64,000 nucleotides of DNA from Azolla caroliniana (GCA_043228905.1 JBHGNT010000008.1:558001-622000); one strand, 5' to 3'; counted from the first letter of the stretch, positions 27,015-61,180 are shown. Notes: generated by a model not told the origin, from the letters alone. Program-made: numbers and translations.

Positions 27015-27068
27015 TAGTCTAATGGTATGTCTATTGCCTCCTATCTTTGAGGTGTAAGGTTCAAAACC
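27015..27068 (+). promoter_or_regulatory. tRNA-like Pol III type-2 module (A box plus B box) in LTR K
   Basis: TAGTCTAATGG ... GGTTCAAAACC, starts 43 nt apart. Confidence 0.6.
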
Positions 27069-27145
27069 TTTACTTGCAGCTCATTGTATGCGTTAGGCTT
27101 ATTATATATATATGTGTAATGATCACCTAAAAACACATCACACGT

Positions 27146-27798
27146 TGTCGGTGAAGAAAACCGTCCACAAGCGGAATCGGTGCACCGGAGCGTAGGAACC
27201 GGCTCTTCATACACGTGCGCCTTATGTTGTACATAGAAGATCCTCGGTAGGTAGGAAGTTAATAGGAAACGGCTCCTTCCTTGCATATAAAAGGAGGGAG
27301 ACAAGGAGGGGAGGGGGGATCGCGAAGGAAGGGAGGACGAAGTGCTGTCGGATTGCGGGCCGAAGGCTTCTCTCTCTTCCAAACTTCATAGCTTCTTTCT
27401 GTGCAAGTTTCGGTAGGCTCGCACTGTTCTGAGGAATGCCCGAGTGCTTCCGGCAGCACCTCCAACCTACTTCTTCCTTTCTGTACGTTTACGAACAGGC
27501 ATCGGCATCTGTTCGCCGGCCTGTTCGAACAGGCATCGGCATCTGTTCGCCGGCCTGTTCGGTTGTAACCGACTTCGTGCTTGTTGTTTGTCTTGTTTAT
27601 ATATATTTCTACATACATTCGTGTCTCTCTGTGTCGCTGTCGCACTCACGTCTTTGTGTCGAAGGGCCGTGTCCCTGTGAATCTACGCTCGCACCTTGTG
27701 GGTCTCTTCCCCTCCCCTCCCCTTTTCTCTCTTGCTCTTCGGTACAGGACCCCCGAGGTCCCGCCTCATTCCACGCATCCGCGAGGGATACCTCGACA
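27146..27798 (+). mobile_element. Gypsy solo LTR L (H-related family) nested in K
   Basis: TGTCGGTGAAGAAAAC...CTCGACA, TSD ACGT/ACGT, homologous to the H LTR (ACGAACAGGCATCGGCATCTG). Confidence 0.9.
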
Positions 27799-28486
27799 AC
27801 GTGCACATTAACCATCACCCCTTCCATACATGTGCATATTACACCTTCTCGATTTTCCTCGTTCCACGTGATTTTCACACCGTTGCCGAAAATCTTCACG
27901 ACAGCGTATACTAAAAGATATGGGTGTACCCATCATAGATCCAATATGCCTATACTGCGACAACATGAGCAGTATCTACCTCGCACATAACCCCGTATTT
28001 CATGCATGGACTAAACACATCGAAGTGCACTACCACTTCATCCTCGAGCGCGTCCAGGCCGGACAAATTGACCACCAACACATCAGCACGCATCTACAAG
28101 TTGCTGATATCTTTACGAAGGCCTTAGGCGTCGACAAGCTCGGGCAATTTGCATTGGCTCTTGGTCTCATGTCGTCCACATTGCCGAGCTTGAGGGGGAG
28201 TACGCAGACGCAACAGGATAGGCTACGCAATACGCAACAAAGCCGACTAGACAAGTCGAAGTACGAACCGAACGACTTTCCGACAGATGAAAGTAGTGTT
28301 CGAAGGGGCGTGTTGAGAATCGAACTCAACTTCTCATAGATAGGTTTCGCACTAGCTCATGGACATTCTAGGCTAGTTTTGTAAATAGTAGAAAGGGCGC
28401 TTGCCCTAGCTTAGTTGGTATATAAACCAACTCATTGTAATTGAATTACTGTTGGATGTATTTCGTTTTGTTAATATCATATACAA

Positions 28487-28541
<55 letters not shown>

Positions 28542-28771
28542 GTTACACACACACACACACACACATACATTCACCTTCTGCTGCATTGCAACCACTCTTG
28601 CCTTCCCATTTCTTAACACCTACAATCAATCATTCCCAAGGGGGTAATCAAGCAATTGTCTCTTCTTGCATAGGATTTTATCACAAATTGACAAGCAAGC
28701 CCACACCTCTATCGTGATTAAATATTTTCTTCGGAATAGTAGTACTGATGAAGGAAAAGCCTTTTTTCCAT

Positions 28772-29203
28772 TGTCGTGAAGATTTTCGGCAACAACATAA
28801 AAATCGCGCGGAAGGGACAAAATCAAGAAGGTGCAATGTGTGCACATGTGGAAGGGGTGATGGTCACACATGTACACTAGCATGTTGTACATAAGATTGA
28901 AATGAGAATAGTAAAAGGAAGGCTAGGTGTAAGGTTAAACATATGCACATTTCTCAAACACTTGTAAATATAAAAATAAGACTAAAGCCTAATAGCATTT
29001 GAGTACATACAGAGGGGTGCAAGCAAGGTTTGAACCTTGCAACTCCAAGATAGGAGAGAATTGACTTACCATTAAAGCTACTATTGAGTGATTTAGATTT
29101 TGTATATTTTCTTCTCATATTCTGTATTCCATAAGAAATAAATGTATAAAACCGTGTGCACAAAACCATGGTTTAAGCCTATGGTTTTGTGCATGTCATA
29201 AGC
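28772..29203 (+). mobile_element. Partial gypsy LTR J (K-related), interrupted by copia D
   Basis: Starts TGTCGTGAAGATTTTCGGCAAC, the reverse-complement homolog of 27810-27903. Confidence 0.75.
29026..29080 (-). promoter_or_regulatory. tRNA-like A/B-box module in LTR J
   Basis: Minus strand TAGCTTTAATGG ... GGTTCAAACCT, 44 nt apart; T-arm stem GCAAGG/CCTTGC. Confidence 0.6.
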
Positions 29204-31483
29204 TGTAGGGAATGCGGTCCCTCCGGATGGCGTAGGACGAGGCGGATCAGGTGAATTTGGAAGGATATATGGAAGCCGAACCGGATGGACCCGGAAGGAG
29301 TCCGACCAGATCCGATGTGAACCATGAGAAGGGACATATTGGTAAATATATTCCTGTTAAGAATCAAGCTCAACATAGTGCAACGTGTTAACGCACCTTT
29401 TGAGAATCCATGATTACTCAAAGGTCAAGAGTCACACCACTACTCTCTACACATTAACTATGTATCATAGAATCATATTCTATGACACATAACTAATGAG
29501 TTACATATTCCCCATGACTATGAGTCTTCACATTCCCCAAGAGAGAGAGTGGTTGTTGTAAAGTTAATGAAAAGAGAGGGTGACTCTATATAAAGCACCC
29601 TCCTCATACTTCATACTAAGTCGGTTGTGACTCCTTGTAATGCTACATTTTTGTATTTCCTATTCTACTTGTGAATATACACCCTCTTCTTGAGTATTCC
29701 TTTTTCTATCTATCTTGTGTTCTCTCTTCTCTCCTCTAATTCCTTTCACACATACACATAGCACACATCTCTTCCGCTACACAAGAATCATGCCCGATTC
29801 TTTACATGGTATCAAAGCGATTTGGTAGCTTGATCTAACGCACTCGCCTCATCGTGATTGTGTGTTGTGCTCTACGTCGACGTTCAAGAAGAACCGGCTC
29901 ATCGCTATCGTAGTACCACTACATAGCTCGCGTTCGAGAGAGAAGGAAAAGAAGAAAGGAAGCTTAATAGACAATGAATACTCAAATGGGGAGCACTCTC
30001 CCTAGCGAGAAGTTGGACCGAAACAACTTCGCATCTTGGGAGTACAAGATGCACCAATACCTTGTCGGCCAAGGCTATGGGGGTTACATCAAGGGAGCAC
30101 AAGAAAACCGACCTGACCCAGAAGACGCTGACTATGCAACGTGGGAGCAAGCGACAAGCCGAGTGATATATTGCTTGGCGACATGTGTTCACGACCACAT
30201 GCTCGGGTACATTCGAGAAGTCGAGATGCCAAAGGAAGTGTGGGAGAATCTACGAAAGATTTTTGCCGCCAACATTACCGCAAGAAAGCTTCAACTCCAC
30301 CAAGAGTTGAACAACATCCAACAAAGGGATATGTCCATCCAACAAAGGGATACGACTCGCTTGGCTCGATAAGTGTCAATGTGGACGATGATGAGATGAT
30401 GCAAATATGCCTCGACGGCCTTGTACCATGATTCGGCGCGATGCAGACCACCCTACTAGCACGGGAGAATCCACCCTCCTTCTTCGATCTTCAATCTATG
30501 TTGTTGGTCGAAGAAAACCATGTTCGAACGAGGAGCAAAGCCTCGGAAGGTCACATGCTCTACACGCATTCGGACGGAGGAAGAGGACGCGGCAAGAAGA
30601 GGCCGATTCGGCCAAGGACGAGGCGGACAAGGGCTAACTTACGAAAACAACTCATAATTTCGATATCAAGATGGAAGCCATCGAGGAACCTTCAGAAGAA
30701 GGGGGAGCTTCTATTCCGGTCCGAATCGACAAAGCTCGGTCAAATGTAGATATTGCGGAAAAATCAGTCACCATGAAGAAGAATGTCGTAAAAGATACGT
30801 GAGTCGGATTCCACTAGCTGACAACTCACCAACTACGCCATCAATTCCGACTATGATGATCGCGGCGGAGTGTTCGTGATGAGACATAGAGCGAATTATA
30901 TGTCGGCCTCTACTTCTACTAGTGCCTCCGGTCTGGAAGATGTAAGGTTCGTCGATTCCGGTGCCTCGAACCATATGACGTCGCATCAAGAATGGTTCCG
31001 AGAACTTCGAGAGCTGGACCGACCCGGCTATGTCGAAACCGGAGAGGACACTACGCACCCGATTCGGCACATCGGCAATGTTCCGTTTCGAGAAGAAGGT
31101 AAGAAAAATTATATTAAAAATGTCTTGCATGTACCAACTATCACGAAGAATTTGGTCTCGGTCGGCCAAATTGTAGAGTAAGGAATGCAAGTACGATTTA
31201 ATCAAGGCGATTGCTTCATCGAAAAAGAGGGCCGACTCATCGCTCGTGGACGAAGAGAGGGCCAAATGTTCATTCTTGACTCACACGAGATGAAATCGGC
31301 CATGTTCGCAAAGGGCATGAAAGCCGATTCCGACATAGAGTTATGGCACAAGCGGATTGGCCATATCAACCTCCAAAAGCTCAAGGCAATAAAATCGAAA
31401 TGAGTCATCATCGGACTCTCGACATTCACGGAGAAAGAGATTGAAGGCGTATGTGCCGCTTGCCAATTCGGCAAGCAACATCG

Positions 31484-34400
31484 TGTTGGGAAACGACCCT
31501 TCTATTAACCTTCACCGCTCGGCCACAACCGAGTGATCGCGAATCAATGGAGCAGAAAATGGGAAATACAAAGATTAGAGAGGACACACGATTTATCGTG
31601 GAAAACCCTGTACGGGAAAAAAACCACGGGAGTACGAGACTCCAAACCAACACTATGCACAGAAAGGTATACAATGGCGAGCTACAAGGCGACGACCTTG
31701 AGCTCGCTGTCCTCGCCACAGGCGGCGGAAATACACAGAGGCGTCGTCCTCTTCCTCTCTCGCGCTTTATCTCTCTCTCTCTCTCTCTCTCTCTCACGGC
31801 TGCTCCCTCGTCACTCCTCTTGAGTGGAAAAACAGAAAAATGATAAGCAACAACAAAACTGTTTGCCCTAAGTCATATTTATACATATATGACTTTAGGG
31901 CTATTTACAACTATGGCCTCAGGGGCCCTTAGCAGACATATTCACGGATATGTCCCTGCATCCGGATCTCTCTCCGGGTACATTCGTCATCCGACTCCGA
32001 AGTCGGGGTCTTCATCATCCGGTTCCGAAACCGAAACCGGGCTGGTCGGCATTCATCTCCGATATCCGACCATCCCATCCGAAGGGACCGTAATCCCAAC
32101 AAACTCCCCCTTCACTTCGGCATGGGATGTCTTTCCAATCCGATCCTCTTCCGGCATGCTTCCAGCTTGTCGGGTGTGAGCACCTTGGTCAGCATATCCG
32201 ACCCATTCTCGTCCGTGTGGATCTTCGTCAGCACGAACTCCTTGTCTTCTATCCTTTCCCGAATCCAGTGATATCTTCGCTGGATGTGCTTCGTCCGGGA
32301 GTGATAGGCCGCGTTCTTCGCAAGGTGGATTGCACTCTGACTGTCGCAGTAGAGTCGGTACTCCTCCTGCCGGATACCGAGCTCTCTAATGAAGTCCTTC
32401 ATCCATATCATTTCCTTGCCGGCTTCAACAGCTGCCATGTACTCCGCCTCCGTGGTTGACAACGCAACCGTCTTCTGCAGCCTCGACTGCCATGAAACAG
32501 CTCCCCCTGCATACGTCATCACATACCCTGATGTGGACCGGCTGGTATCTGCATCAGCCGACATATCCGAATCAGTAAAGCCGTCAAGTTCGGGCTTACC
32601 GGAGCCGAATCGGAGGCACACATTTGCCGTGCCCTTCAGGTATCGGAGTATCCACTTGGCCGCGTTCCAATGCTCTTTGCCGGGATTGCTCATGTACCGG
32701 CTCACCACTCCGACTGCATATCCGATGTCCGGTCTCGTACACACCATGGCGTACATCAAGCTCCCGATGGCTGAGGCATATGGTACTTTCATCATATCCT
32801 CCTTTTCAGCCTTTGTCTTGGGACTTTGCTTGTTGGACAGCTTGCAGTTTGCCGGGAGGGTCGATCCGACCGGTCTTGCTTCCGACATGTTGAACCGGTG
32901 AAGCACCTTCGTCACGTACTTCTCCTGTGACAGCCACAACTGCTTCTTCTTCCGGTCCCGGATGATGTGCATCCCTAGTATTTGTCTCGCCGAACCCAGG
33001 TCCTTCATTGAGAAGGTTCGGTGAAGAGCCTTCTTCAGCATCCGTATCTTGACCTGGTCCCGTCCGACGATCAACATGTCGTCCACGTACAGGAGGAGTA
33101 TTAGAAAGTCTCCTCCTTCGAACTTCTTCACAAACACGCAGTGGTCGGACTGCGTTTTGAGGTACCCTTCGTCGGTCATGAAGGAGTCGAACTTCCGGTA
33201 CCATTGCCGGGGAGCCTGCTTCAGTCCGTAAAGGCTCTTCTTCAACCGGCATACCAGGTGCTCCTTCCCTTTCTTCTCGAATCCTTCCGGTTGCTGCATG
33301 TAGATCTCTTCATCGAGGTCACCGTGAAGGAATGCCGTCTTCACGTCCATCTGTTCTACCTCGAGGTCCATGCTTGCCGCTATGCTCAGCACCGTCCGGA
33401 TGGAGGTCATCTTCACTACCGGGGCAAATATCTCGTCGAAGTCGACGCCCTTCTTCTGCTGAAACCCCTTCACCACGATCGTGGCTTTGTATCTCGGGGG
33501 GTTTCCGGCATCTCCCGGTTTCAGCTTGAACACCCACTTGTTTCGAAGTGCCCGCTTTCCTTTCGGCAACTCCACAAGTTCATATGTGTGGTTCTCATGC
33601 AGGGAATCCATCTCGTCCTGCATGGCACTAAACCACCTGCGGCTCTGGGTGTCGTGCTTTGCTTCTTCAAAGCTCTCCGGCTCCCCCTCGTCGGTTAGCA
33701 GCACGTGCTCTGGATCCGGAAATCTCCGGGGGGCCCTCCTCTCTCTTAGAGGGTATCTCCGTTCGGGAGCTTCGGTAACCGGTTCTTCCGATTCTTCTTC
33801 TTCATCCGAATCCATTTCGGGATCGGGGCCGGTTTCGGTATCATTTTCATCTTCTTCGGCCGGTTCTGTTTCTTCACCGTCTTCGGCCGGATCCTCGAGT
33901 GATAACCGGTCCCTTGCCGGTCGGGACTGCTCCTCGTAGAGTTGATCCTCACCGGTCGACTTGGAGCTCTTCATCTTCTTCTCCGACTCCCAGTCGGCGA
34001 GTGTCTTGTCCTCCATGAAGATGATGTCTCGACTCCTGAATATCTTCTTGTCGACCGGGTCCCATACTCGGTAGCCGAACTCGTCGTCGCCGTAACCGAG
34101 GAATATGCATGGCCGGGTCTTTGGATCTAACTTTCCTCTCCGGTCCTTTCCCACATGCACGTATGCGAGACACCCGAACACCTTCAGATGCCGGTAGGAC
34201 ACTTCCTTACCGGTCCACACTTTCTGCGGCGTGTCTCCGTCCAAAGGTACTGAGGGTGATCTGTTTATCACGTATGTCGCCGTCGACATTGCCTCAGCCC
34301 AAAACCCCTTGGGTAATTTCGCATGCGCCAGCATACTCCGGACCCTCTCCATTATGGTCCGGTTCATCCTCTCGGCCAGCCCGTTCAGTTCCGGCGTCTT

Positions 34401-36501
34401 CGGCACAGTAAACTCGAGCCGGATTCCCTTCGAGCGACAGTACTCCTGGAACTGCCCCCGGTATTCCCCTCTGTTATCCGCTCGTATCGCCTTCAGCTTC
34501 TTGCCGGATTCCCTTTCCACTCTCGCGTGAAGTTCTTTGAAGACGCACAACACTTGGTCCTTTGTCTTCAACGGTGCCGTCCACAGCTTCCGACTGTAAT
34601 CATCAATGAATGTTACGAAGTACTGGGCTCCGCCATGTGACTTCGTTTCTACCTGACACACATCAGTGTGCACCAACTCCAATGGTGCGCTACGTCTCGT
34701 CGGTGGCCTTGAGTGGAAAGAGGCTCGGTTCTGCTTACCGGCCAGGCAATCGGTGCACTTCTCCAGGTGCACATGCTTCACTGGAATGAGGTTGTCTTCT
34801 GCAAGCCTCTTCATCCCCTTCTCACTCATGTGGCACAGTCTCTTGTGCCACAGCTCACCGGCAGTGTCGGCTGCCACGTTCAGCTCTTCCGGACATAACC
34901 GGGCATTCATCAGGTACAGTGTGTTGACTTTCCGAGCCCGAGCCACTATCAGGCTCCCCTTGCTGAACTTCATTCCGCCGTTCCGGATGCTACCTGTGTA
35001 GCCTTCATCGTCTAGCCTCCCGGCCGAAATCAGGTTCAATCGAACCTCCGGAACGTGTCGGACATCCTTCAGCAGCATTTTGCATCCGGTCGGGGTTGTC
35101 AACCACACGTCTCCTATGCCGACAATCCGGCACGTACCTTCATTCCCCATCCGAACACGGCCATGCTCGCCGGCTGTGTAGGATGAGAAGTATCTTCTCT
35201 CCGGGGTCAGGTGGAACGATGCTCCCGAATCGACCACCCAGGTCGTCTCATCGCCGGCAATGTTTAGTTCACCTTCTTCGGTGATGAGCATGATTTCTTC
35301 CTCACTTGCTGCGAGTGCCGTTGTTCCTTTCCGGTCCTGCCCTTGCCGATCCGAACCTCTCCGGTCCGTGGCTCCCCGGTATGCACCGTTTCTCTCCGGT
35401 GACTTCTTCGAATCGGTGTCGTCGGCTCCGTTGTCCTTTCGGTAATGCCGACAATTCTTTCGGAAGTGCCCCGGTTTCCCACAGTGGAAGCATGTGGGCC
35501 TTCCTCTTGACTGCGACCGGGTCCCCGACTTCTCCCGTCTTTGCGGACTCCGGTTCCATTGTCTTCCCCGATCCGATTCGGTAAGCAGCGCCTTCGGGTC
35601 GGAGGCCGGTTCTTTATCTCTCCGACGCGCTTCTTCGTTCAAAATACTTGTCTTTACCGTTTGCAAGGACAAGTTATCTTCTATGCAGGAGGTGCTGAGA
35701 GTCACCACCAAGTTCTCCCAGCTTTCCGGCAATGTACACATCAGGATGATGGCTTGCATTGCGTCCTCCAACGGGAACTTGATCGCCGCAAGCTGATTCA
35801 CGAATCCCATGAACGTGCTTACGTGTTCGACCATACTCTCGCCGTCCCGATACTTGAGGTTCACTATCTTCCTCATCAGGGAGGTCCGGTTCAACGCATT
35901 CTTCCTCTCGTAGAGGCCCGACAGCTTCTTCCACATCTCATATGCGTTGGTGTCGTTCGCCACGTGTTGTAGGACGCTTACATCGACATATTGTCGGATC
36001 GTCGCTACGGCTTTCCGGTTCAGGAGCTTCCACTCCGACTCAAGTACCCCCTTCGGTATTTCCGACCTGTCAATCGGTTCGTACAGGTCCCGAACAATCA
36101 GAAGATCCTCCATCTTGATCTTCCAGTCGGCGTAATTCTGTGCATTCAGCACCATCATCCCCGGCTGCCCGCTGCCGCCGCCTTCCATTTTCTGCAGCAG
36201 TTCGCTCTGATACCAGATTGTTGGGAAACGGCCCTTCTATTAACCTTCACCGCTCGGCCACAACCGAGTGATCGCGAATCAATGGAGCAGAAAATGGGAA
36301 ATACAAAGATTAGAGAGGACACACGATTTATCGTGGAAAACCCTGTACGGGAAAAAAACCACGGGAGTACGAGACTCCAAACCAACACTATGCACAGAAA
36401 GGTATACAATGGCGAGCTACAAGGCGACGACCTTGAGCTCGCTGTCCTCGCCACAGGCGGCGGAAATACACAGAGGCGTCGTCCTCTTCCTCTCTCGCGC
36501 T

Positions 36502-36538
<37 letters not shown>

Positions 36539-36842
36539 GGCTGCTCCCTCGTCACTCCTCTTGAGTGGAAAAACAGAAAAATGATAAGCAACAACAAAAC
36601 TGTTTGCCCTAAGTCATATTTATACATATATGACTTTAGGGCTATTTACAACTATGGCCTCAGGGGCCCTTAGCAGACATATTCACGGATATGTCCCTGC
36701 ATCCGGATCTCTCTCCGGGTACATTCGTCATCCAACTCCGAAGTCGGGGTCTTCATCATCCGGTTCCGAAACCGAAACCGGGCTGGTCGGCATTCATCTC
36801 CGATATCCGACCATCCCATCCGAAGGGACCGTAATCCCAACA
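31484..36842 (-). mobile_element. Young Ty1/copia element E (Tnt1/Tork-like) with near-identical LTRs
   Basis: LTRs 31484-32101 and 36219-36842 (2 substitutions plus a 6-bp (CT)n difference), TSD CATCG/CATCG, Met PBS 36204-36215, PPT about 32104-32114. Confidence 0.97.
32112..36188 (-). CDS. Uninterrupted gag-pol polyprotein of E, 1358 aa
   Basis: CCHC knuckle CFHCGKPGHFRKNC, PR WVVDSGAS, HHCC plus DDE integrase, RT YVDDMLI, RNase H; copia domain order. Confidence 0.96.
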   Translation of the reverse strand: MEGGGSGQPGMMVLNAQNYADWKIKMEDLLIVRDLYEPIDRSEIPKGVLESEWKLLNRKAVATIRQYVDVSVLQHVANDTNAYEMWKKLSGLYERKNALNRTSLMRKIVNLKYRDGESMVEHVSTFMGFVNQLAAIKFPLEDAMQAIILMCTLPESWENLVVTLSTSCIEDNLSLQTVKTSILNEEARRRDKEPASDPKALLTESDRGRQWNRSPQRREKSGTRSQSRGRPTCFHCGKPGHFRKNCRHYRKDNGADDTDSKKSPERNGAYRGATDRRGSDRQGQDRKGTTALAASEEEIMLITEEGELNIAGDETTWVVDSGASFHLTPERRYFSSYTAGEHGRVRMGNEGTCRIVGIGDVWLTTPTGCKMLLKDVRHVPEVRLNLISAGRLDDEGYTGSIRNGGMKFSKGSLIVARARKVNTLYLMNARLCPEELNVAADTAGELWHKRLCHMSEKGMKRLAEDNLIPVKHVHLEKCTDCLAGKQNRASFHSRPPTRRSAPLELVHTDVCQVETKSHGGAQYFVTFIDDYSRKLWTAPLKTKDQVLCVFKELHARVERESGKKLKAIRADNRGEYRGQFQEYCRSKGIRLEFTVPKTPELNGLAERMNRTIMERVRSMLAHAKLPKGFWAEAMSTATYVINRSPSVPLDGDTPQKVWTGKEVSYRHLKVFGCLAYVHVGKDRRGKLDPKTRPCIFLGYGDDEFGYRVWDPVDKKIFRSRDIIFMEDKTLADWESEKKMKSSKSTGEDQLYEEQSRPARDRLSLEDPAEDGEETEPAEEDENDTETGPDPEMDSDEEEESEEPVTEAPERRYPLRERRAPRRFPDPEHVLLTDEGEPESFEEAKHDTQSRRWFSAMQDEMDSLHENHTYELVELPKGKRALRNKWVFKLKPGDAGNPPRYKATIVVKGFQQKKGVDFDEIFAPVVKMTSIRTVLSIAASMDLEVEQMDVKTAFLHGDLDEEIYMQQPEGFEKKGKEHLVCRLKKSLYGLKQAPRQWYRKFDSFMTDEGYLKTQSDHCVFVKKFEGGDFLILLLYVDDMLIVGRDQVKIRMLKKALHRTFSMKDLGSARQILGMHIIRDRKKKQLWLSQEKYVTKVLHRFNMSEARPVGSTLPANCKLSNKQSPKTKAEKEDMMKVPYASAIGSLMYAMVCTRPDIGYAVGVVSRYMSNPGKEHWNAAKWILRYLKGTANVCLRFGSGKPELDGFTDSDMSADADTSRSTSGYVMTYAGGAVSWQSRLQKTVALSTTEAEYMAAVEAGKEMIWMKDFIRELGIRQEEYRLYCDSQSAIHLAKNAAYHSRTKHIQRRYHWIRERIEDKEFVLTKIHTDENGSDMLTKVLTPDKLEACRKRIGLERHPMPK

Positions 36843-45495: not shown

Positions 45496-45513
45496 TGGTG
45501 AACCCGACGTGAA
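45496..45513 (+). other. Primer-binding site complementary to the tRNA-Trp 3' end
   Basis: TGGTGAACCCGACGTGAA, 4 nt after the LTR end. It is the reverse complement of ...TTCACGTCGGGTTCACCA (plant cytosolic tRNA-Trp 3' end as I recall it). Confidence 0.8.
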
Positions 45514-48500: not shown

Positions 48501-50975
48501 CTTCATTCAAGACCTGCAACCGGTCAACAGAGTGACCATTCGGAACGCAGGAATCGGACCAACGATAGACGAGTTCGCAGAGGCCTTCGCCGGAAGGTTG
48601 ATCTACTCGGGGTACGATCAGTTCCAACTAATCGTAGAGAGCAGAGACATTACGACGATGCGGACTCCTCTCGGCCTAGCACGGATGTGCACCCTACCGC
48701 AATGAGGGACGAACTTGGTGGCCCACATGGTGAATGCGATGAACAAGGTGCTGAGGGATTGTATCCCGGATGTCACCATGCCATTCTTGGACGACATCCC
48801 GATCAAGGGATGTCCAGTGGAGGAAAGGGACGAAACGATCGGACCGGACGGATGCCGGCAATTCGTGACGACACACATTGACGACTGCGAGAGGGTGCTG
48901 TAGAGGCTAGAGGACGCGAGGCTCACCTTCTCCAGGGAAAAATCGGCCTTCGGGCAATCCGAGATCATGGTCGTCGGACATCTATGCGGACCGTATGGCC
49001 GGAAACCGTCTCGAGCAAAGGTGGAAGCCATCTCCGCAATGAAGCCCGACTGTAACTCGGTCACGGAGGTACGGAGGTTCTTGGGAGCATGCGCGTTCTA
49101 CCACATATGGATCCCACATTACGCCCACGTTGCAGAGCCGCTATACGGGTTGCTGAAAAAGGGGCGAAAATTCGAGTGGCGAGACGAGCATGCGGAGTCG
49201 GTCCGAAAGATGAAGGAGGCTCTTGCTGCAGCTCCGGCACTCCGGAAGGCTATCTACGAGAAAGGCACTCCCATCTACATAACGGTAGATACGAGTCCGA
49301 CCGGAATCGGATGGGTCGTCAACCAAGAAGATGAGGATGGCATTCGGTTCCCAATCCGGTTCGGCGCGAAGGTCCTCAGTGAGCGACAACGAGGATACGC
49401 CCAGGTCAAACGCGAACTCTGGGGTATCGTTTCGGCGATGAAGGCCGATAAAGACTATCTGATTGGGACAGAGGTGATTATCGAGACGGACTGCCTGCTG
49501 ATTCTCGGCATGGTTTCTGGATGCGCAACCCCGGACCTGGCAATGCTCAGGTGGATAGCGTACATCAAGTCCCTGGATCCGGAAATACGACACATTTCCG
49601 GGAAAGACAATGCCATGGCCGACATGCTTTTGAGGGCGCGATTCGACGACGAGGGCGGCATGGTTTCGGAGGACGAGGAAGTCGGCGTAGACTTCTTCGA
49701 GGCGGCTTACGTAACAACCGAGGGGGGAAGCACTCCGGCGCTTGACGATTTCAACGAGAGCAAGTACGACGGGGAGTGGCTGCAAATTGGGGGATTCTTA
49801 AGGACAACGATGCCGGACGCATCGTGGATAAGGGACGAGGCCAACCGGATCCGGAAGAAAGCGTACCGATTCTTTCTCCGGGACGAATACTTGTGGAAGC
49901 ACCCGAAGAAGAGGAACGGCATCCCGCTCTGAGTAGTGGCGATGAAGGAGGAACAGGAGGAATTGCTAAAGGCCTACCACGACAGCCCCTGGGCTGGATA
50001 CCGTGGGATGTGGGCCACGTTCGACAAGCTAAAGGGGAAGTACTGGTGGCCGGGACTGTACCGGGACGTGCATCAGTTCGTGACAACTTGCGAGAGCTGT
50101 CAAATGCACTCCATAGTCCGACATCGAGACGAGCTTCACCCGACTTACCCTCCGGCCATCCACTTCAAATGGATGGTAGATTTGGTGACGATGCCGATGG
50201 GTGTAGGGCAGATGCGATATCTGGTGCTGGCCCGGGAAGACCTGACGAACCAGGTGGAAGGCCGAGCCCTGCAGAACAAAACGACCGCGGCCGTGTGTCG
50301 GTTCCTGATCGAGGACGTGATATGCCGGTACGGGTGCGTCGGAAAGATCGTGGCTGACCGCGGGGAGTTGGACGCCGAAGAGGCCGAGGAGTTGTTCGAC
50401 CGGTTGGGGGTCAAGCTCTCGCTCACCACAGCGTACAATCCGGAGGCAAACGGGAAGGTAGAGCGCGGGCACGGGCCAATCGTCAAAGTGCTAGTCCGGG
50501 CATGCGGAGACCAGGTCGGGAACTGGTCGCGGCTGTTACCTTACGCCCTATGGGCGGACCGGACAACGCACAGCTCGGTAACCGGGTTCATGCCGTCAGA
50601 GCTCATGTTCGAACAAAAGCCGATCATGCCGATGGAACGGACGATCTCCTCTTGGGCGACAGTAGACTGGAGTGATGAAATGATTCGGCAAGAACTACTA
50701 GCGGCGCGTATACGACAGCTCAAGCGAAGGCCAGAGGACGTGGAACGAGCGGCGGAGAGACTTCGGACGGCAAGGATGAGGAACAAAGCCCGGTTCGACC
50801 GAACGCACCGGCTCAGACCAAAGAGAATCGAGGAAGGCGACTGGGTGCTAGTCTACGACAGCAGCCTCGACAACCAGCACCGAGCAACACGGAAGTTTGC
50901 AAAGCGGTGGTTCGGGCCTTACGTGGTAACGGGAGCCAACGACAACGGGACGTATCACCTGGCGGAACTCGACGG

Positions 50976-52425
50976 TGTCGCGAAAATACGACGAGGATAC
51001 GCGAACTTTGAGGCAGGACCCCGGGGCCTCCGACCAGAAGATATCGGATTCGTATGATTATATTAAACAATTAATGCAAAATGATAAAGATTCACAAATT
51101 TCATTAATAAAGGGAAAAGAAATTACAATATGTCCCAAGATTGGGATTTAGAAGTTTTAGGTTTACTAAGATTAATAGAAAAGAAAAATTAGGGGTTTTG
51201 GTAGATATGGCTTCCGTAGGGAAGATTAGGATTCGGTCCTATGAGTATTATGGCTTCCTAAGATAAGGGAGTTGAGAAGAAAAAAAAATCCAATAATATG
51301 GAGAGTCTATTCTAGTGTAGGGAAAAAAAATGCAATAAAAATGGAGTTCTCTCTTGATCATAGCCTTTTCACTTTTTGTTGCATGGCCTCTATTTTTAGT
51401 TGCTTAGCTTTTTCTTTTGGTTGCATGTGATTGTCCACATGACCTTTACTTTTTCCATGCACTCCCTTCTTTAGTTGCTTGCGTCCACATGGCCTTTACT
51501 TTAGTTCTCTTCACTTTACTTTAGTTTGTTGCATGATCCAATCTTTCGTCCGTCCGCGTCCAACATCGTCCGGTAGCCGGTTCCATTTTGCTTGCCGGTC
51601 GGTTCCGGTTCCGATTTTGCTTGCAGACCGATTCCGGTTTGCTTGCCGGTTTCGGTTTCGGTTTTGCTTGCCGGCCGGTTTCCGGTTCCGATTTTGCTTG
51701 CAGACCGATTCCGGTTTGCTTGCCGGTTTCGGTTTCGGTTTTGCTTGCCGGCCGGTTTCCGGTTTTGCTTGCCGGTTCCGGTTCCGGTTTTGCTTGCCGG
51801 CCGGTTTCCGGTTTTGCTTGCTGGTTCCGGTTCCGGTTTTGCTTGCCGGCCGGTTCCGGTTTGCTTGCCGACCGGTTTCGATTCCGGTTTGCTTGCCGGT
51901 TTCGGTTCCGGTTTTGCTTGCCGGTTCCGGTTCCGGTTTTGCTTGCCGGCCGGTTCCGGTTTGCTTGCCGACCGGTTCCGATTCCGGTTTGCTTGCCGGT
52001 TTCGGTTCCAGTTTTGCTTACCGGCCGGTTTCCGGTTTTGCATACCCGTTCCGATTCCGGTTTTGCTTACCGGCCCGTTTCCGGATTTGCTTACCGGACC
52101 CGTTTCCGGTTTTAGGGATTTTGGCCACCATCATCCATCAAGACAAAGTGGCCAAAGTTCTCTCAGCACAAATGAAAAATGAGGGAGCTCAAGGTGTTTA
52201 TATAGCCAGGGCCTTAACTTTCCTATCTATGTGGGATAGTTCTAATATCTCTATCTAATCAAACTTCATTTTCCCATAACTTGATATGTATTTCTCCATT
52301 TTATATATAGTAAAATACATTTTGAAGCTCTTGAGTATATTCATCTTTCTATAGTAAGCTACCAATCTAATCTATAATAATTATTTCATTATTTTTTTAC
52401 ATAGTGTGTGAAGATTCACACGACA
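50976..52425 (-). mobile_element. 1.45-kb gypsy-type solo LTR I inserted in the integrase tail of H
   Basis: TGTCG...CGACA termini, TSD ACGG/ACGG. Removing it restores LAELDGTRMAIP. Minus-strand TATA (CTATATAAA) near 52196-52204. Confidence 0.88.
51575..52112. repeat. Compound GC-rich minisatellite (TTGCTTGCCGG and TTCCGG modules) inside LTR I
   Basis: About 20 TTGCTT modules interleaved with CCGG-rich hexamers. Confidence 0.95.
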
Positions 52426-55400
52426 ACGGTACGAGGATGGCGATACCAGTGGCGGGAAAGCGGATCAAAGCGTTCAAGAAGCGCCACGACGGCGAATCGG
52501 ATCTAAGAGGCCTAGACAACGACGATGATCAGTCCAAGGCGGAGGACGAACCGATGGACGAGGAACCGGAAGCGGGGCCGTTTTTCTCCAACCAGAACCC
52601 AATTTTGGCGCATACCGGTGGATGCGCTGTTAGGTGGGGGCGGATGTCGTGAAGAAAACCGTCCCCTAGCGTAATTGGTGAATAGTACACAGGAATCGGC
52701 CCTTCACGTGTGCGCGCTCTTAATGTATATAATAGAGAATTAGGTACAGAGAGAGATCCGGGGTAGTTAGATTCGGTAGGTAGGAAGTAAATGAGGGAGA
52801 CGACTCCCCTCTTGACGCTATAAAGGAGAGGAAGACGCAAGGAAAAAAGGGATAGCGCATTAAGGAGGACAAAGTGTTGTTGGACCGGAACCGAACGCTT
52901 CTCCTCTGTCTGTTCTCTATTGCCCTTCTCTGCAGGTTTCGGAAGGCTCGCGCTGCTTCGAGGAACGCCCGTGTGCTTCCGGCAGCACTTCCATCCTATC
53001 CCCATTTCGTGCGTAGACGAACAGGCATTGGCATCTGTCCGCCGACCTGTTCGGTTGTAGCCGCTCGCGTGTTCTGCTGTGTACTCGTTATTCGTTAATA
53101 TACAAACACTTGTTTCTTCCTGTCTCTGTGTCCATTCGCGTCTTCTGTGTTGACGGGCCACGCCCCTATGTTTCTTTGCTCATACGTGACCGGGCGTCTC
53201 TCTCCTTCTCTTTCCCCTTCTATCACCTGCTCTTCGGTTCAAGACCCCGGTGGTCCCGCCTTGTTTCCCCACGCACGCGCGTAACAACGCGACAACGCCT
53301 TGATAGCCCTCTCTAAAAATCCCTTCGTTCGCCACTGCCGAGGGTTTCACAGTTCCGCTCATGGTTCGGTCGCACGGTCAGGAATTGGACGGAGTGTCGT
53401 CCATCTTGGCTCTTTACGCGCGCTATGCCGAACCGTTATCCAGCACCCATGTCTCCATACGCGTCGCCATAATGTACGACTCGTCAAGTATCACCAGGTG
53501 CGAGAAAGTCTCCTGCACGAAAACGTGTTGATCGATCTCAACGTTGCCAATCTTGACGCGTACATTCGAGCACGCCCCGTGCAGCTCGTCCGTAGCACGG
53601 GTCGTCGCGCGTATGTTCCAACTATGCTTGGTATTGATCGGCTACTTCCCCTTTTTATAGAAGTCCATGGACATCAGGTTGATCTCCGAGCCATGGTCTA
53701 TCAATGCCACCATTGGCTCCTGGATGTCCCCGATCCGAACAGGGGTTCCCATAGTGGCTCTGACCCAGTGCGACCTCGAATAGTGGCTCTCTACCAACTC
53801 GTCTTCTAGGTGAGTGGTTCGCACCTCCACCGGCTTCTCCAAGTCCACGATGGAATTGTGGAACTCCTTCTTGGCGATCCTGAGCACCTCCCTCAGCGAC
53901 AGCTCCACTTTGTTGTCGACGATCTGCTCTTCGAGGACCTTCCGCAGGTCCGTTGACCTCTCAATCTCCGTGTTCAACCGGTAACCGGCCCGCTTCGTTT
54001 TGTCCGGTGCGCCGGGGTTACCAACATCGTTTTGCTTCTACCCGAACCGGGTCTCGTGCCGTTGTGAGGGCCCAACACCTCCAGCTTTTCCCGCGCGCTT
54101 GTCTTCTACCAGAACCTCGTAGTTCTGGCACGCGGCTTCCACGAAACCAGTCTTCTCCTCAACCGGATCATCCCGTCCAGTGACCTCCCGGACCCACGGC
54201 TCCGCGTGATCCACTTCTTCCCTCTTTAGTCGTACGCCAGAGAGGCCTTCTAGCACCAAGGGCCAGAAGCCAGAGTCTTTCGTTTTCCAGTCTTCGTTAC
54301 CTCCTACCCGGATTCCGGCCGATGCCGAATAATGGATGGCCTCTGCATGGCGCGTCTCCACTTCTTCCATTAGCCGCTTCATCCCGCCGCACCCGAAATT
54401 TGTCTCCGTGGCTCTCCGGGTATCACCAGCGTGCACCCGTTTGTTCCATAGGTACACCACATTACCCCTGAGGGCTTCGGAAAACTCCGCGCAGTCTCGC
54501 CGGTTGTGTCCGACCGCGTCGCACCACATACACCGTTGTCCAGCCGGTGGCCTCCGGTCGCGTGGCTGCCCTCCACTATCTCTCCGGTCCTGCACGATCT
54601 GCAGGTCGCGCACCATTTGTGTCACCTCCTCAAGAGCCGCTCCTCCGGATGGGCCCTTGACCGCGTCAGTCGATGTTGAGCCCATGTCAAGCCAATCCCG
54701 GGTTTCCTCTTTTCTTGTCGGCGAAGGTTCATCGAACTTCCTTGCCAGGACGTGTCTCGCCGCCGCCAATCCCTCGTCGCCCTACTCACGCCGCTTGTCG
54801 AAACGGATGCAAAATCCTTTGACCATGGCCCAGTCGGTCGTCAGCCCATCATCTATCTCCAGTAGGAGACCATCGCTTTGATGAACAACAGGACATGGCT
54901 AGTGTCTAGCACGGTCCTATCCAGTGCCGAGAGCCGCGCGAAGCGTTCTTCGAACTCCTGGAGGAGCGCCGACGCGTTCCTCCCCTTTCCGGGGGTCTCC
55001 ACCGACTCCATGAAGTCCCGCTTCGATAACCAAAGTGTATCATCAAGCCCATACCTTTTGAGGAGCCGTGCTTCGAATTCTCCCACGGTCCGCCATCCAG
55101 CCTCTACCTCGAGCACCTCTGCGTGAATTCCTGGTGTCGCCACCCGAGGGAACCCGGTCAGATGCCTATCCTCTGGAATGTCCCTCATCACCATCTCGGT
55201 TCGGTAGGCCACCAAATAGCTCGTGGCGTCCTTCCTACCGAACCGGCCTATCGTGTCGACAATTGCTTCAATGGTCCTGTCGAGGGCACCTGTGCCCTGG
55301 CGAGCACTTACTATCCAATCGACTACTGCCGCCATGGCTTCGGCGAGCTCCGATCCCCTCATCTTCGACTCCTCTGCCGCCTTTCTCACATCGGGTTCAC

Positions 55401-58375
55401 CAAATATGTCGTGTTGTTTCACTTTTGCGTGTGAAATAAGACGGGACCACGGGGGCCCTGAACCGAGGAGCAAACAAGAGGAAGCAAAGAGCGCACACGC
55501 GTAAGGCCTATTAGACCCGTTTGCAACCGACAACACTTGCCGGCCGAATGAACCACCAATGTGTATACCGACTTATTCAAGAAACACACTCGCGGGAAAA
55601 AGGGAGAGTCCCAGAAACACATATAGACTAAAACAGGAGATTCAATTACAATAACAGTAACGATTACAGAGATTGCAATATTACAATCGGATAGTCGGCG
55701 ACAGACCCAACCCAGACAATCACACACCCACACACACACGCAGTAGAACCTTCGCCAGAAGCGCACGGGCTTTCCTCCAAGCAAAAGCATCCGACTCCGA
55801 AAAACCTGCAGAGAATGATGATAATAGATAGAGGAGGAGAGAGCTCGGTTCCCAGTCCGACATCACCTCGTCCTTGCCCCCAGACGCGATAGCCCTTTCA
55901 GCCTTCTCCCCTTTCCTTTTTATAGGCCGCCGGGGAGGGACCGTTACATCCTATCGCATCACCTTTATTCTCTGCCCCTTTAGATAGGGATCCGCCTCGA
56001 TTTACTAGCCTACTATTACACCCTTCCTAGGATATGCACATCACGCCGGCCTATTCTTAATTATGTACTCCTTATCAATATTTGTGCCCGCGCGTAAGGG
56101 CCGGTTCATACACCTTTTTCACTGATTTCGCCTAAGGCCAGTTTTCTTCACGACACCGGGTACGAGCCAAAGCGGACACCGGAGATCGTCCGAACCGGAT
56201 ACTAGCCGAAGTGGACATCAATCAAAAGGAACCGACCCGAGTTGAGCTTGAGGGAGCATGTTGAGAATCAAGGTCAACATAGTGCAACATGTGAACACAC
56301 ATTTTGAGAATCCATGATTACTCAAAGGTCAAGAGTCACACCACTACTCTCTACACATTAACTATGTGTCATAGAATCATATTCTATGACACATAACTAA
56401 TGAGTTACATATTCCCCATGACTATGAGTCTTCACATTCCCCAAGAGAGAGAGTGGTTGTTGTAAAGTTAATGAAGAGAGAGGGTGACTCTATATAAAGC
56501 ACCCTCCTCATACTTTATACAAAGTCGGTTGTGACTCCTTGTAATGCTACATTTTTGTATTTCCTATTCTACTTGTGAATATACACCCTCTTCTTGAGTA
56601 TTCATTTTTCTATCTATCTTGTGAGCTCTCTTCTCTCCTCTAATTCCTCTCACACATACACGTAGCACACATCTCTTTCGTCACACAAGAATCATGCCCA
56701 ATTCTTTACAGTTCCTATGTGCCATTGAGGCCATACTGTAAATAGCCCGAAAAGTTATATGAATATAAATATAACTAGGGCAACTAAATGTATTGATTTA
56801 TGATAACATTTTAGTTGGTTGTTGTTGAAGTATAGATAGACAGAGAGAGGGTGAGAGAGAGATACAGAAAGTCATTTTTGTTGTAACCGCCGGTTGGCGA
56901 AGATACAGAGCTCAAGGACGTTACCTTTGAGACTCTTAGTGAAATACCTCTTACCTATAGTGACCCTATTTGGAGTTTTATGAAATCCTGTGGTTTTTTT
57001 CCCGATTAGGGTTTCCAGGTTAATATTCCGTGTGAGACTCGGTTGTCGCTTTCTATCAATCTGGTATTAGAGCATGGAAGGTCCATTCGGCAGCATGTTC
57101 AAGCTCACCGGCTCCAACTACTCTATGTGGAAGTCGAAGATGAGGGACATGCTAGTGGTTAAAGATCTTTGGTTGCCGGTATAGTTCAGGGACATAAGGC
57201 TAAACCAAGTTGATGCATCAACATGGGAGGTGATGCACATGAAGACAACAACCTACATTAGATGCTTCATCGACATGAGCATGTACAACAACTTCAATGA
57301 GGAGAAGAAAGCGCACGAGCTCTAGGAAAAGATAGGCATCATGTTTGAGAACAAGAATGCCGTAAATCGAGTCTCGGTATTTTGGAAGTTAGTGAAACTC
57401 AAACATCAAGACGGCTCCAGCATGGCAGAGCACATGAATGCCTTCAAGGGGCTTATAAATCAGACTACCTCATTGGAGGCATCCTACAAAGCCGAAGACC
57501 ACAACTTTGTGAGGATGGGGAATGAAGGTGCATGTCGAATTGTTGAAATAGGAGACGTGTTACTGATGACATCAACCGGGTGCAAGATGCAACTGAAAGA
57601 TGTCTGACACGTTCCAGATGTTCGGTTGAACCTGATATTAGCTAGTCGGTTGGATGATGAAGGCTACAAGGGTAGCATTCGGAACGGAATCATGAAGTTC
57701 AACAAAGGGAGCCTGATCGTGGCCCGAGCCGGAAGATCAACACATTGTACTTAATCCATGCCCGGATATGCCGAGAGGAAGCAAACATAAGATCCGACAC
57801 TGTCAGTGAGTTGTGGCACAAGAGGTTGTGTCACATGAGCTAGAAAGGGATGAGAAGACTTGCCGACGACAACCTCATTCCGGAGGTGAAAGACGGGCAG
57901 CTTGAAAAGTGCACCAATTTCTTGGCCGGCAAGCAGAACCAAACCTCTTTCTTGTCGAGACCACCGATGAGGTAGAAAGCACCGTTGGAACTTGTGCATA
58001 CTGACGTATGCTCCGTAGATACGAAGTCACATGTCGGATCATTGTACTTCGTGATGTTTATAAATTACCACAACTTCCAGTTGTGGGTATCCACACTAAA
58101 GATGAAGGATCAGGTAATCCATCTTCTAATATCGGGGGCAGTTCGAGGAGTATTTCCGGTCAAAAGGAATCCGGCTCGAATTTACCGTGCCGAAGACGCC
58201 GAAACTGAACGGAATGACCGAAAGGATGAACCAGACTATGATGGAGAGAGTACGGAGTATGTTGGCACATGCTAAATTGTCCAAGACGTTTTAGGCTGAT
58301 GATGGCGACCTATGTGATAAACATATCACCCTCAACATCCTTGGAAGGAGATACACCACAAAGAATATGGACCGG

Positions 58376-61180
58376 TGTTGTGGTGTGGCTTGCCCATAAG
58401 CGTAGCATTGCGTAGACGAAAGATAACGTGAAAGTGAGGAAGGAATCGTTGGGATTTTGGACGGAAGAGACAAAATAGTAGAAATAGATCAATAGTGATC
58501 AAGAAGATATGACAAGATAGGATATAGAATGATATTTGAAGGAATGAAAGAGATTTATAATTATTTGATAAAATGGTTGCGAGCCGTTGAACGTTCGAAC
58601 TTTGTCTCATAAGGTAATCACTCTTCTCTTTCTTAATAACAATCTTCACTTCAATATTTCAATGAAGATAAGAATTGAACCGTCGCCCTTTCATTGCGAG
58701 TTGAGCACCACAACCGCCAAGCTAGCTCTTCTCTTGTTTTTTCTTTTTCTCTTGCTCTTTTTATCTTATGATATCTCTTATGTAATATAATTCTATTTGA
58801 TTCTCTTGATATATCATATAATATAGTTCTTCGATTTCAAATCCTTCCATATCCTTGTGACTATACTCCCTTCTCCTTTTATAGGAAGGGGAAGGTTTTG
58901 CATGTGGGCCATATGACACACATGCAAAGAGGGCTCTTGCATGTGTGCTATATGGTGCACATGTAGTACATTACATGGTTTAGACTATATATTAGAAATT
59001 CAAATAATATACCATACATAGATATACAAATCATGGATGTTGGGTAAATGGTAAGGTTTGAGACTTGTAAGGTAGATGTTGTTGGTTCAAGTCCTCTCTT
59101 GCCAATGTAATATGCTATATGGTCCTTATGTAATACATTATATGGTTTTATGGCTTAAACCATACAATACTACTACAAATAAAACAATACATTTATATAT
59201 AATATAAATATAGGGTAAATGGTAAGGTTTGAGAGTCGTACGGTGGGGCTTATTTGTTCAAGTCCATGTAATATAATATATATACTTTTTAGTTGTCTCT
59301 ACATATAATGTTTAATGTTTAATATTATCTTTATAAAATATTATCAAGATTTATTTTATTTTAGTTATGTATTTATCTTATTGTAGACTTTTAATGTGAA
59401 GCTTTCGTACTTCATGACATCCACCCGCTCTAGACCTACACATCACCTGGCATGTTCCACTATCTTTCATCTTCATGTTGATCTATTGGAGGAGGTTCAA
59501 GCTCAAACCTTTTCTTAAATAATTTATCCTCTTTCCAGCTACCACGTCTAGGATTAGTGTTCCATCCAATTCACTAAGCTTATAAGTAAAGTTATCATAT
59601 ACTTTTTTTTACTATGTAGGGCCCAAACCATCTTTCAACAAACTTGCGAACAGTGATATGTTGATTATCTAAACTGCTATCATACACAAGCACCCAATCC
59701 CCCTCTTCTATTTTCTTAGGCCGAATTCTATGAGCTTTATCAAAACGAATTTTATTGTTCAATCGAGCCTGTTGTAATCGTTGGGCTGCTAATTCTATAT
59801 CTTTAGGTCGACGCTCTAATTGTTGAATTTGTAAAGCAAGCAATTCTTCTTTGCTCACCTCTTCTCTCCATGGAATAGATGTCCATGACATAATTGATTC
59901 TTCTATTGGCATGATGAGCTTTTGACCAAGTATCAATTCGGCTAGAATGTATCATGTTGTCGAACTATGCATTGTCCGATTCGCCCATAGTGCATAAGGT
60001 AGGATGCGTGGCCAATCTCTAATTTTACCTTTACAACTTTTCACAATTGCCTTAACTATTGGGCTATGTCCTCTTTCAATCTTTCCATTAGCCTCTGGAT
60101 TATAAGCAGTTGTAAGTGATAATTTGACCCCTATGCGACTGAAGAATTCTCTAGCTTCATCAAAATCAAGTTCTCCTCTATCCGCAATTATTTTACCAAC
60201 ACACCCATAACGACATATTACATCTTCTAACAAAAATTTACATACAACTCTAGTTGTTTTTTGTCGTAGCGGTCTTCCTTCTACTTGGTTTGTAAGGTCT
60301 TCTCTTGCTAGACCTAAATATCGCATTTGACATTCCCCAAGTGGCATTGTCACTAGGTTGACCATCCATTTATAATACATTGATGGTGAATATGTTGGTT
60401 TTAGCTCATCTCAATGTCGAATAGTTGAGTACCTCTAGCAGACCTCACAAGTTTCCACAAATTTCATTACATCTTTATACATATGTGGCCACCAATACTT
60501 CTCTTTCAACTTCATAAATGTCGCTCAAATGCCTCTATGTCTTGCCCACAAACTATCATGGAATTCAATATTATAATTAATTTTCTCTTAATATCATCCT
60601 TACCAATGACTCGAAGAGGATTCTCAGTTGGCCTTTTTGGATGCTTCCATAAACACCCTTCTTGTAAAAAAAAACGTGAATGCCCGTCTTCAAAATTCAT
60701 TTAATTGTTTCTTTGACCATGATGGGTTGGCTTCTTGAGTCTTTAAAAAGTTTCCTATTTCTAACCATTGACCTTCATACTCCGTCCGTGTCTTTGAACA
60801 TTATGCTTACATTAAATTCATCATGAGGCTCAATAGATACTTGATGAGTAACTTGATGGCTTATAGTTGCCCAATTCTTATCTTCAGTTTCCATCACCTT
60901 TTCATTTATGAACCTTGCCCTTGACAGCATATCTGCAACTAGGTTCTCTTTGCCCTTTATATGCCTCAATTCTAGGTTCATGGTTTTGATGTATGCAATC
61001 CACCGAAGCATTGCAATACTTGGTGTCGTGCAACTTGTTATCATCCCGATGAGTGGCAGACAATCTGTTTCAACGACTACATTTGCTCCAATCAAGTAAT
61101 CTCTATCTGTTTTTAGTGCAGTAAGCAAACCCCACAATTCTCGTTTAACTTGCACATAATTTCTTTGTCTACACTGACAC
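58376..61180 (-). mobile_element. AT-rich Phygy-like gypsy element G (3' LTR plus INT/RH, 5' part lost)
   Basis: LTR 58376-59419, PPT-like tract at 59420. INT (AREDLTNQVEGR, YNPEANGKIERG, WFGPY) and RH (VKRELWG, ETDCLP) homologous to F and H. Confidence 0.88.
59041..59265 (+). promoter_or_regulatory. Two tRNA-like A/B-box modules in the LTR of G
   Basis: TGGGTAAATGG (59041) ... GGTTCAAGTCC (59084) and AGGGTAAATGG (59212) ... TGTTCAAGTCC (59255). Both 43 nt apart. Confidence 0.6.

Follow-up and report, generated by a model that had tools for sequence, protein, structure and literature searches.

Promoter boxes of RNA polymerase III (Pol III) are known from the long terminal repeats (LTRs) of Cassandra, Helenus and Ajax, where they replace the RNA polymerase II (Pol II) promoter of tiny non-coding elements. 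The only plant member of Helenus/TRIMp3 comes from Selaginella, and, according to its description, autonomous partners are expected to rely on Pol II and to lack such LTRs (Kojima 2024, PMC10886601). In chromatin, TFIIIC binds A and B boxes, relieves nucleosome repression and marks extra TFIIIC (ETC) sites without Pol III (PMC11346459); it also recruits TFIIIB to AT-rich upstream DNA, and such flanks hold a CAA motif (PMC13578239). Among the gypsy retrotransposons of plants, a preference for NCGN target sites is given for Phygy alone (Neumann et al. 2019, PMC6317226), the target-site duplication (TSD) of which is 4 bp (Jedlicka et al. 2019, PMC6911290). Here we analysed a stretch of 64,000 nucleotides (nt) from Azolla caroliniana (GCA_043228905.1 JBHGNT010000008.1:558001-622000), termed the window, in which all positions are counted. 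The LTRs of its Phygy-like elements carry modules of tRNA-type A and B boxes that are fixed, conserved parts of the LTR and not sporadically inserted short interspersed nuclear elements (SINEs). Unlike the boxes of Cassandra, Helenus and Ajax, these conserved boxes coexist with and bracket the Pol II promoter, which calls for a different function.

Outward-facing modules around the TATA box

A preliminary description of the window had claimed six A/B-box pairs, spaced 43-44 nt, in the U3 region of four LTRs designated K, J, M and G; all six were recovered, each on its strand and with that spacing. The module of LTR K (27015-27068, plus strand, antisense to the LTR) consists of an A box, 43 nt and a B box with 0/0 mismatches and has a profile E of 7.5e-10, and that of LTR J (29026-29080, minus strand, antisense to the LTR) was found by the box scan with a profile E of 3.6e-7. 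LTR M contains a proximal module (M2, 38698-38751, minus strand, 0/0 mismatches) and a distal one (M1, 38567-38620, minus strand) that belongs to the second copy of a 131-bp unit. Likewise, LTR G has a proximal module (G1, 59041-59094, plus strand, antisense to the LTR, 1/0 mismatches) and a distal one (59212-59265, plus strand) in the second copy of a ~170-bp unit. The weakest of the reported pairs is M1, with two B-box mismatches.

The box scan, for which A- and B-box consensus patterns were used, returned three hits in the whole window at up to one mismatch per box (K, G1 and M2, all spaced 43), compared to a mean of 0.33 and a maximum of 1 in 12 block-wise dinucleotide shuffles. At up to 2/1 mismatches there were nine hits, six of them spaced 43, against a shuffle mean of 2.0 (maximum 3). 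A further pair spaced 43, at 12827-12880, lies outside any LTR and has a module-profile E of only 0.18; it was treated as chance.

Every module had been described as antisense and located in U3. This is true of the six reported pairs, but K, M and G each hold an additional, overlooked A/B pair in sense orientation, 70-160 bp downstream of the TATA box. The sense module of K (26695-26749, minus strand) was found by the box scan, with an E of 9.8e-6 against a profile built from other copies; that of M (39018-39072, plus strand) was also found by the box scan, with a profile E of 5.1e-11; and that of G (58671-58724, minus strand) has 2/1 mismatches and a spacing of 43. The M sense module is worn in the window, and other copies have the canonical B-box C at 39066 (>90% of depth, 4/4 runs); for the G sense module, other copies have B-box-consensus letters at 58674 and 58676 (4/4 runs). 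The TATA boxes lie at 26817-26824 (K, minus strand), 38937-38944 (M, plus strand) and 58877-58884 (G, minus strand), and both these positions and the distances of ~150-370 bp to the U3 modules agree with the preliminary description.

With a sense module downstream and an antisense module upstream of the TATA box, the Pol II promoter is thus enclosed by outward-facing modules. The order along the LTR is 5' end, one or two antisense modules, CATG array, TATA box, sense module and 3' end, with 237-287 bp from A box to A box across the promoter in the K and M types and 317 bp in G. The array, a series of CATG/TGCA palindromes upstream of the TATA box, is common to K (26833-26945, minus strand, limits approximate) and M (38804-38929, plus strand, limits approximate). 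The hexamers CATGCA/TGCATG occur eight times in each of K and M, compared to 0-1 times in module-less LTRs; CATGCA is the RY motif, a binding site of B3 factors, among them ABI3.

The four LTRs had been treated as separate families, which does not hold: J is a fragment of a K-like LTR (identity 79% in the module and 81% in the initial 93 nt), and a stretch of 151 nt is common to K and M at 75% identity. Only G is unalignable, and yet it keeps the same layout and spacing.

Fixation and conservation across independent copies

Thirty metagenome loci were retrieved by an exact 21-nt motif that is common to K and M and lies outside the modules. With generic boxes, the antisense interval in U3 contained a pair with at most two total mismatches in 20 of 31 sequences (K and M included), compared to none of 31 on the wrong strand, where the best pair had five. 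The sense interval downstream contained a pair with at most three mismatches in 21/26, compared to 1/26 on the wrong strand and 0/23 in intervals further down. A profile matched at the expected U3 place in 25 of the 30 loci (one match partial), a count that is partly circular because many loci trained the profile, and at the expected sense place in 22 of 30. The U3 misses are L010, where the contig ends, L002, L006 and L025, in which homology to the LTR stops no later than the A box, and L017, which has a deletion. At the sense place, five contigs end, L029 is interrupted, and the short 3' part of L017 and L021 is a different one. Two U3 units occur in nine of the 30 loci, and contig joints show one- and three-unit forms as well; in these nine loci, in M and, separately, in G, the duplicated unit includes the whole module.

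Apart from the modules in LTRs, neither the 64-kb window nor the 59.5 kb of loci gave a profile hit with E<0.01. The possibility of sporadic SINE insertions had been raised from the start; the modules proved to be fixed in position and orientation, with no free copy in ~120 kb. An ordinary SINE insertion is ruled out by this fixed place (25/30 and 22/30) and by the fact that no TSD, tail or free copy of its own was found in the window or the loci.

Every one of the 30 bins is covered by M-like sequence in runs with three organism labels, and by G-like sequence in runs with four. By summed contig depth, a measure unfit for ranking or copy number, the bins of the M proximal module are among the higher and those of the G modules among the lower. 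In viral contigs, neither the 21-nt motif nor integrase relatives were found. As a separate observation, the LTR homology of L002, L006, L025 and L023 is broken off between -86 and -136, counted from the anchor motif, within ~50 bp around the start of the U3 A box; these breaks are possibly assembly chimeras.

Comparison with the neighbouring U3, a check proposed in the preliminary description, showed that the boxes exceed both the flanks and the between-box sequence in conservation. In a box-anchored alignment of U3 modules (n=21), the identity is 0.79 for the A box and 0.86 for the B box, against 0.64 between the boxes and 0.60-0.67 in the flanks. For the sense modules (n=19) the values are 0.73 and 0.74, against 0.66 between the boxes and 0.57-0.60 in the flanks, with p=0.08 for boxes versus between-box sequence. 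Rates were estimated from a 25-row alignment anchored on the motif, off the boxes. Near-duplicates (L002, L003, L020, L027, L028 and L030) and the short L006 partner were excluded, and L017, L021, L023, L025 and L029 were trimmed where homology ends, so that losses are counted separately, outside the rates. Maximum-likelihood site rates are lower in the boxes than in the flanks (p=3e-5) and the between-box sequence (p=0.003), the latter two not differing from each other (p=0.13), and a G or C inside the boxes changes about half as fast as one elsewhere.

Parsimony changes per sequence-site are 0.021 (U3) and 0.038 (sense) in the B boxes (seven positions each) and 0.086 (U3) and 0.070 (sense) in the A boxes (eight and five positions), compared to 0.087 in the TATA core, 0.081 in the CATG array and 0.167-0.201 in the flanks; the free NN positions of the B boxes have 0.125 and 0.342. 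The consensus-defining B-box positions therefore change 4-9 times slower than the flanks and slower than the TATA box, whereas the NN positions change at the flank rate or faster. In 11-nt windows, the CATG/TGCA array is the most conserved part of the LTR.

The tRNA fold is not maintained alongside the boxes. ARAGORN found no tRNA in the window or in any of the 30 loci, and an Rfam scan of 18 of the 30 loci found none either; in the Rfam scans no 5S rRNA was matched, the sole relevant match being tRNA. With 25.1 bits, this match, of M2 to positions 8-63 of the tRNA model, falls short of the gathering score of 29. Among 27 distinct U3 modules, the acceptor and D stems are 47% and 44% paired, which is the level of slid controls, and the anticodon and T stems are 76% paired, mostly through G-U drift. 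RNAalifold predicted three pairs at ~0 kcal/mol for the U3 modules and none for the sense module, and the mean folding z is -0.36 for the M type, -2.0 for the K type (n=5) and +0.34 for the sense module. A functional tRNA gene is ruled out by the ARAGORN zeros, the acceptor and D stems at control level and the lack of a consensus fold. In the K-type modules (27015-27085 and 29009-29080 in the window; L008, L016, L022 and L024), an additional inverted repeat behind the B box lengthens the T arm, and folding is better than in shuffled sequence. Slowly changing box positions together with a lost cloverleaf argue for selection at the DNA level, and the alignments point to selection on box sequence and spacing, not on the tRNA fold.

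The host elements and their module-less relatives

The window consists of plant retrotransposons nested in one another, with copia, gypsy and LINE pieces. The LTRs K, J, M and G all start with TGTCRTGAAG. K is a Phygy-like solo LTR (26464-27903, minus strand; ~780 bp without a nested LTR) with TGT...ACA ends and the TSD GCGT, inserted into a copia RNase H region. The LTR nested in it is itself solo (27146-27798, plus strand; 653 bp; TSD ACGT), module-less and GC-rich; it belongs to a related family and is similar to the LTRs at 44842 and 52645. J (28772-29200, end approximate, plus strand) is a 5' fragment, the 3' end of which was not found. M is a solo LTR of 860 bp (38502-39361, plus strand; flanks ACGC/ATGC) at a junction of copia reverse transcriptase (RT) and RNase H, and contigs joining across the empty site confirm that it is solo. 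G (58376-59419, minus strand; 1043 bp) is the 3' LTR of a gypsy element, the polypurine tract (PPT) and integrase of which lie at 59420-60410. Among the loci, LTR lengths are 703-893 bp.

The interiors are coding. Open reading frames of 330-401 amino acids (aa) adjoin the LTRs, with integrase in L022 and G and a protease motif in L009; the K-like L022 has the order integrase, PPT, LTR. The same primer-binding site (PBS), which presumably matches tRNA-Trp, follows the LTR in five loci and, as a sixth, in L020, a copy 96% identical to K. The gypsy domain order is RNase H, H2C2 and rve, with the integrase ending shortly before the PPT in L022 and G; domain scans of the gypsy interiors gave no match to a chromodomain. 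Target sites conform to NCGN in 14 of 17 5' flanks and four of six 3' flanks, including K (GCGT/GCGT) and the LTR nested in it (ACGT/ACGT). Such CpG-centred sites fit the earlier guess that the element lands in methylated DNA. The closest relatives of the polyprotein are environmental contigs, and the nearest named one is from the liverwort Riccia. By TSD, NCGN preference and domain order the lineage appears Phygy-like, the rows of its tree being environmental and Riccia only.

The M type, with the relatives L009, L005, L018 and L025, is a gag-protease-only, abundant, non-autonomous family of this Phygy-like lineage. M-like 5' LTRs run into gag (L018, L025), and M-like 3' LTRs directly follow protease (L009, L005), from which the gag-protease-only structure follows. 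In L009 (1904-3019) the protease frame extends to the PPT without RT, RNase H or integrase, and L005, L018 and L025 provide a similar basis. The Pfam search did not recognise gag and protease of the lineage, and protease was called from tblastn matches to Riccia polyproteins and a common DHGSE motif. With gag and protease running directly to the PPT and the 3' LTR, the M type resembles TR-GAG elements; known examples of these are from flowering plants and are not known to carry Pol III boxes.

The six related LTRs of the window that have no module also have no CATG array and are GC-rich (0.49-0.54). The observed/expected ratio of CHG is 0.17-0.43 in module-bearing LTRs (10 loci), compared to 0.79-0.89 in module-less ones, and between the A boxes of 16 copies 13 CHG sites were observed against 113 expected. 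This poverty is not specific to modules, because a copia LTR at 29355-29806 is equally poor. Both CHG and CpG are strongly depleted in the module-bearing LTRs when these are compared to their own coding regions and to the GC-rich related LTRs.

Several other features were observed in the window. A plus-strand Phygy-like element (LTRs ~44842-45491 and 52645-53297) and a solo LTR (~42917-43591) interrupt a minus-strand Phygy-like element at 39903-56155 (LTRs 55407-56155 and 39903-40659), all GC-rich and module-less; tandem CCGG-rich units of 22-28 bp fill 51570-52113, between the integrase and the 3' LTR of the nested plus-strand element. A copia element at 32115-36236 has an unbroken frame of 1374 aa and LTRs (31484-32101 and 36219-36842) that are 98.7% identical, indicating a recent insertion. 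Finally, 61280-62880 is a decayed stretch with a 100-bp tandem duplication at 62591-62801 and is possibly an organellar insertion; by eye it resembles plastid ribosomal-protein genes in the order rpl2/rps19/rpl22/rps3.

A predicted TFIIIC bracket, its alternatives and known systems

We propose, as a reading with about an even chance of being right, that the modules probably bind TFIIIC and, as brackets, would hold the Pol II promoter between them open. The modules would descend from captured tRNA or SINE heads and would be bound by TFIIIC, with or without TFIIIB and Pol III. Because they face outwards, their upstream flanks, on the TFIIIB side, would come to lie within the ~270-bp promoter, and the pair could form a two-sided, nucleosome-poor bracket that limits the spread of heterochromatin from CpG-containing repeats at the insertion site. 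For the genomic RNA, Pol II would start from the TATA box. With its T run at a fixed distance, the U3 unit of the M type may yield a ~100-nt antisense Pol III RNA as a by-product. A TFIIIC shield had already been suggested in the preliminary description, in a one-sided form. The fixed and conserved modules speak for such a shield, and the second, sense module makes a two-sided form more plausible than the one-sided one; related families in the window do without modules. More tentatively, and short of an even chance, a portable TFIIIC boundary pair, captured by a coding plant retrotransposon lineage for its Pol II promoter and not for its own transcription, might let a CpG-targeting element stay active in methylated repeats and spread thousands of boundaries over the host genome.

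Several observations weigh against the bracket. No module occurs in six LTRs of related families in the window, where the best pairs have 4-6 mismatches in total, and the integrases of these families are nearer the K type (80-82%) than that of G is (71%). L021 lacks the sense module, L017 lacks both the U3 B box and the sense module, and in G both U3 modules are skipped by joins in three single G-like contigs. Taken as 11-nt windows, the boxes reach only the 78th-85th percentile, a rank similar to that of the TATA box and lower than that of the CATG array; the last B-box position is T and not C in most M-type copies, and many A boxes have one or two mismatches. The 30 loci were chosen by one exact 21-nt motif, the 10 assemblies are possibly one series, and G-type copies are absent from the loci. 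Moreover, the barrier evidence for TFIIIC and tRNA genes (tDNAs) comes from yeast and animals, none for plants having been found in the literature, as far as the available text of the sources goes (PMC11346459, PMC13578239).

A 34-row integrase tree with midpoint root places the K type together with two module-less elements (99/98), whereas G stands apart. On this tree, one gain with one loss costs the same as two gains, and the bracket would be either ancestral and then lost by LTR replacement, or gained twice. Either history implies selection, together with dispensability in some families; that module-less families amplify likewise shows that modules are dispensable for some families in the lineage.

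Among the alternatives, the modules might be true Pol III units in which the act of transcription or a short RNA is selected, either the ~100-nt antisense U3 RNA or a sense regulator from R/U5. This is unlikely, although a T run follows the B box by 32-34 nt in 13 of 15 proximal and seven of eight distal M-type units. In M itself this candidate terminator, 33 nt after the distal B box, lies at 38529-38533 (minus strand) and reads TATAAAAA on the LTR strand. The upstream flanks are AT-rich, often with CAA, both boxes and their spacing are kept, and modules of the K type exceed shuffled sequence in folding (mean z -2.0, n=5). However, no RNA structure is conserved, neither the sense module nor the K-type U3 units are followed by a fixed T run, and the T run of the M type, which is also the TATAAAAA adjoining the LTR end, may be kept for other reasons. 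We disfavour as rather improbable that the modules are neutral relics of tRNA or SINE heads inserted once in an ancestral LTR, with conservation reflecting recency or general LTR constraint. Related families without modules, copies that lost one, and anticodon and T stems paired as in a partly decayed tRNA would suit such relics, and not a few other Repbase LTRs hold tRNA-like pieces according to Kojima, who mentions them only in passing (PMC10886601). Neutrality would leave unexplained why B-box consensus positions change so much more slowly than the flanks while the NN positions do not, and why two or three modules, with no TSD, tail or free copy found, keep one layout in K/M and G, which are unalignable.

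A role in integration or recombination, as landing pads for Pol III-targeting elements or as tethers steering the element's own insertion, is very improbable. The homology breaks of L002, L006, L025 and L023 do cluster around the A-box start, at -113 from the anchor, but neither an LTR end nor a second LTR half was found at these possibly chimeric joints. The LTR nested in K lies 78 bp past the B box and not upstream of the module, and the element's own target sites are NCGN. Just as hard to credit is a tRNA-like structure in the genomic RNA that serves priming, packaging or processing. The sense module would fall in the 5' leader and the K-type U3 modules have an extended T-arm hairpin, whereas the sense module has no consensus structure, the U3 modules are antisense and a normal PBS and PPT are present; self-priming by the modules was rejected, with a longest complementarity to the PBS of only 7 nt. 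Least probable of all is synthesis of the genomic RNA by Pol III from the sense module, the mode that has been proposed for Helenus and demonstrated for Cassandra. The sense module does sit at the transcript start and faces into the element, but in 16 of 17 copies a run of T4 or longer, at no fixed place, follows within 160 nt, which argues against Pol III as the source of the genomic RNA. The internal regions are kilobases long, coding and rich in T runs, the TATA box and the enhancer-like array are conserved, and the antisense modules would be left unexplained.

Should the TFIIIC bracket be correct, recruitment of TFIIIC would mean that the element brings its own chromatin boundary and escapes silencing without any protein. 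Such a cis-encoded anti-silencing device would be natural evidence for tDNA-type insulators in plants. The LTR would also offer a ~400-bp natural construct, with module-less related LTRs as controls, for testing tRNA-type barriers in plants, and at high copy number these LTRs would supply TFIIIC sites, as well as false tRNA or SINE annotation calls, in large number.

Boxes derived from tRNA are already known from LTRs; the bracket arrangement around a Pol II promoter was found in none of the papers searched. Likewise, no report of tRNA-type boxes, whether paired or antisense, in the LTRs of coding plant elements was found in the open literature, a result on which the Helenus supplements and Repbase may bear. 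Helenus is similar in its tRNA-derived LTR sequence with conserved A and B boxes, no functional tRNA, and a PBS and PPT, and its proposed origin by SINE insertion into an LTR is comparable with the capture suggested here (PMC10886601). It differs in being non-coding and 311-1263 bp long, with a single module thought to drive the genomic RNA (PMC10886601), whereas here the LTRs alone are 700-1040 bp, the TATA box is kept, the interiors encode gag-protease or integrase, and two or three modules lie in opposite orientations. Cassandra is likewise a plant LTR element in which Pol III boxes and their spacing are conserved and the between-box sequence is variable (10.1101/2023.07.14.548913). However, it is a non-coding terminal-repeat retrotransposon in miniature with 5S-type (type 1) boxes, in contrast to the tRNA-type (type 2) boxes here, and its Pol III promoter replaces that of Pol II (10.1101/2023.07.14.548913). 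Phygy shares the 4-bp TSD, the NCGN sites, a short element with a polyprotein filling the interior, and frequent nesting; tRNA-like LTR modules are not mentioned in the available text of its descriptions, and the M type adds a gag-protease-only derivative (PMC6317226, PMC6911290). Finally, the tDNA and ETC insulators of yeasts and animals resemble the modules in that A and B boxes are conserved without a tRNA product and stand at domain edges; those are chromosomal sites, whereas the putative sites described here travel in the LTR of a plant transposon as an outward-facing pair (PMC11346459).

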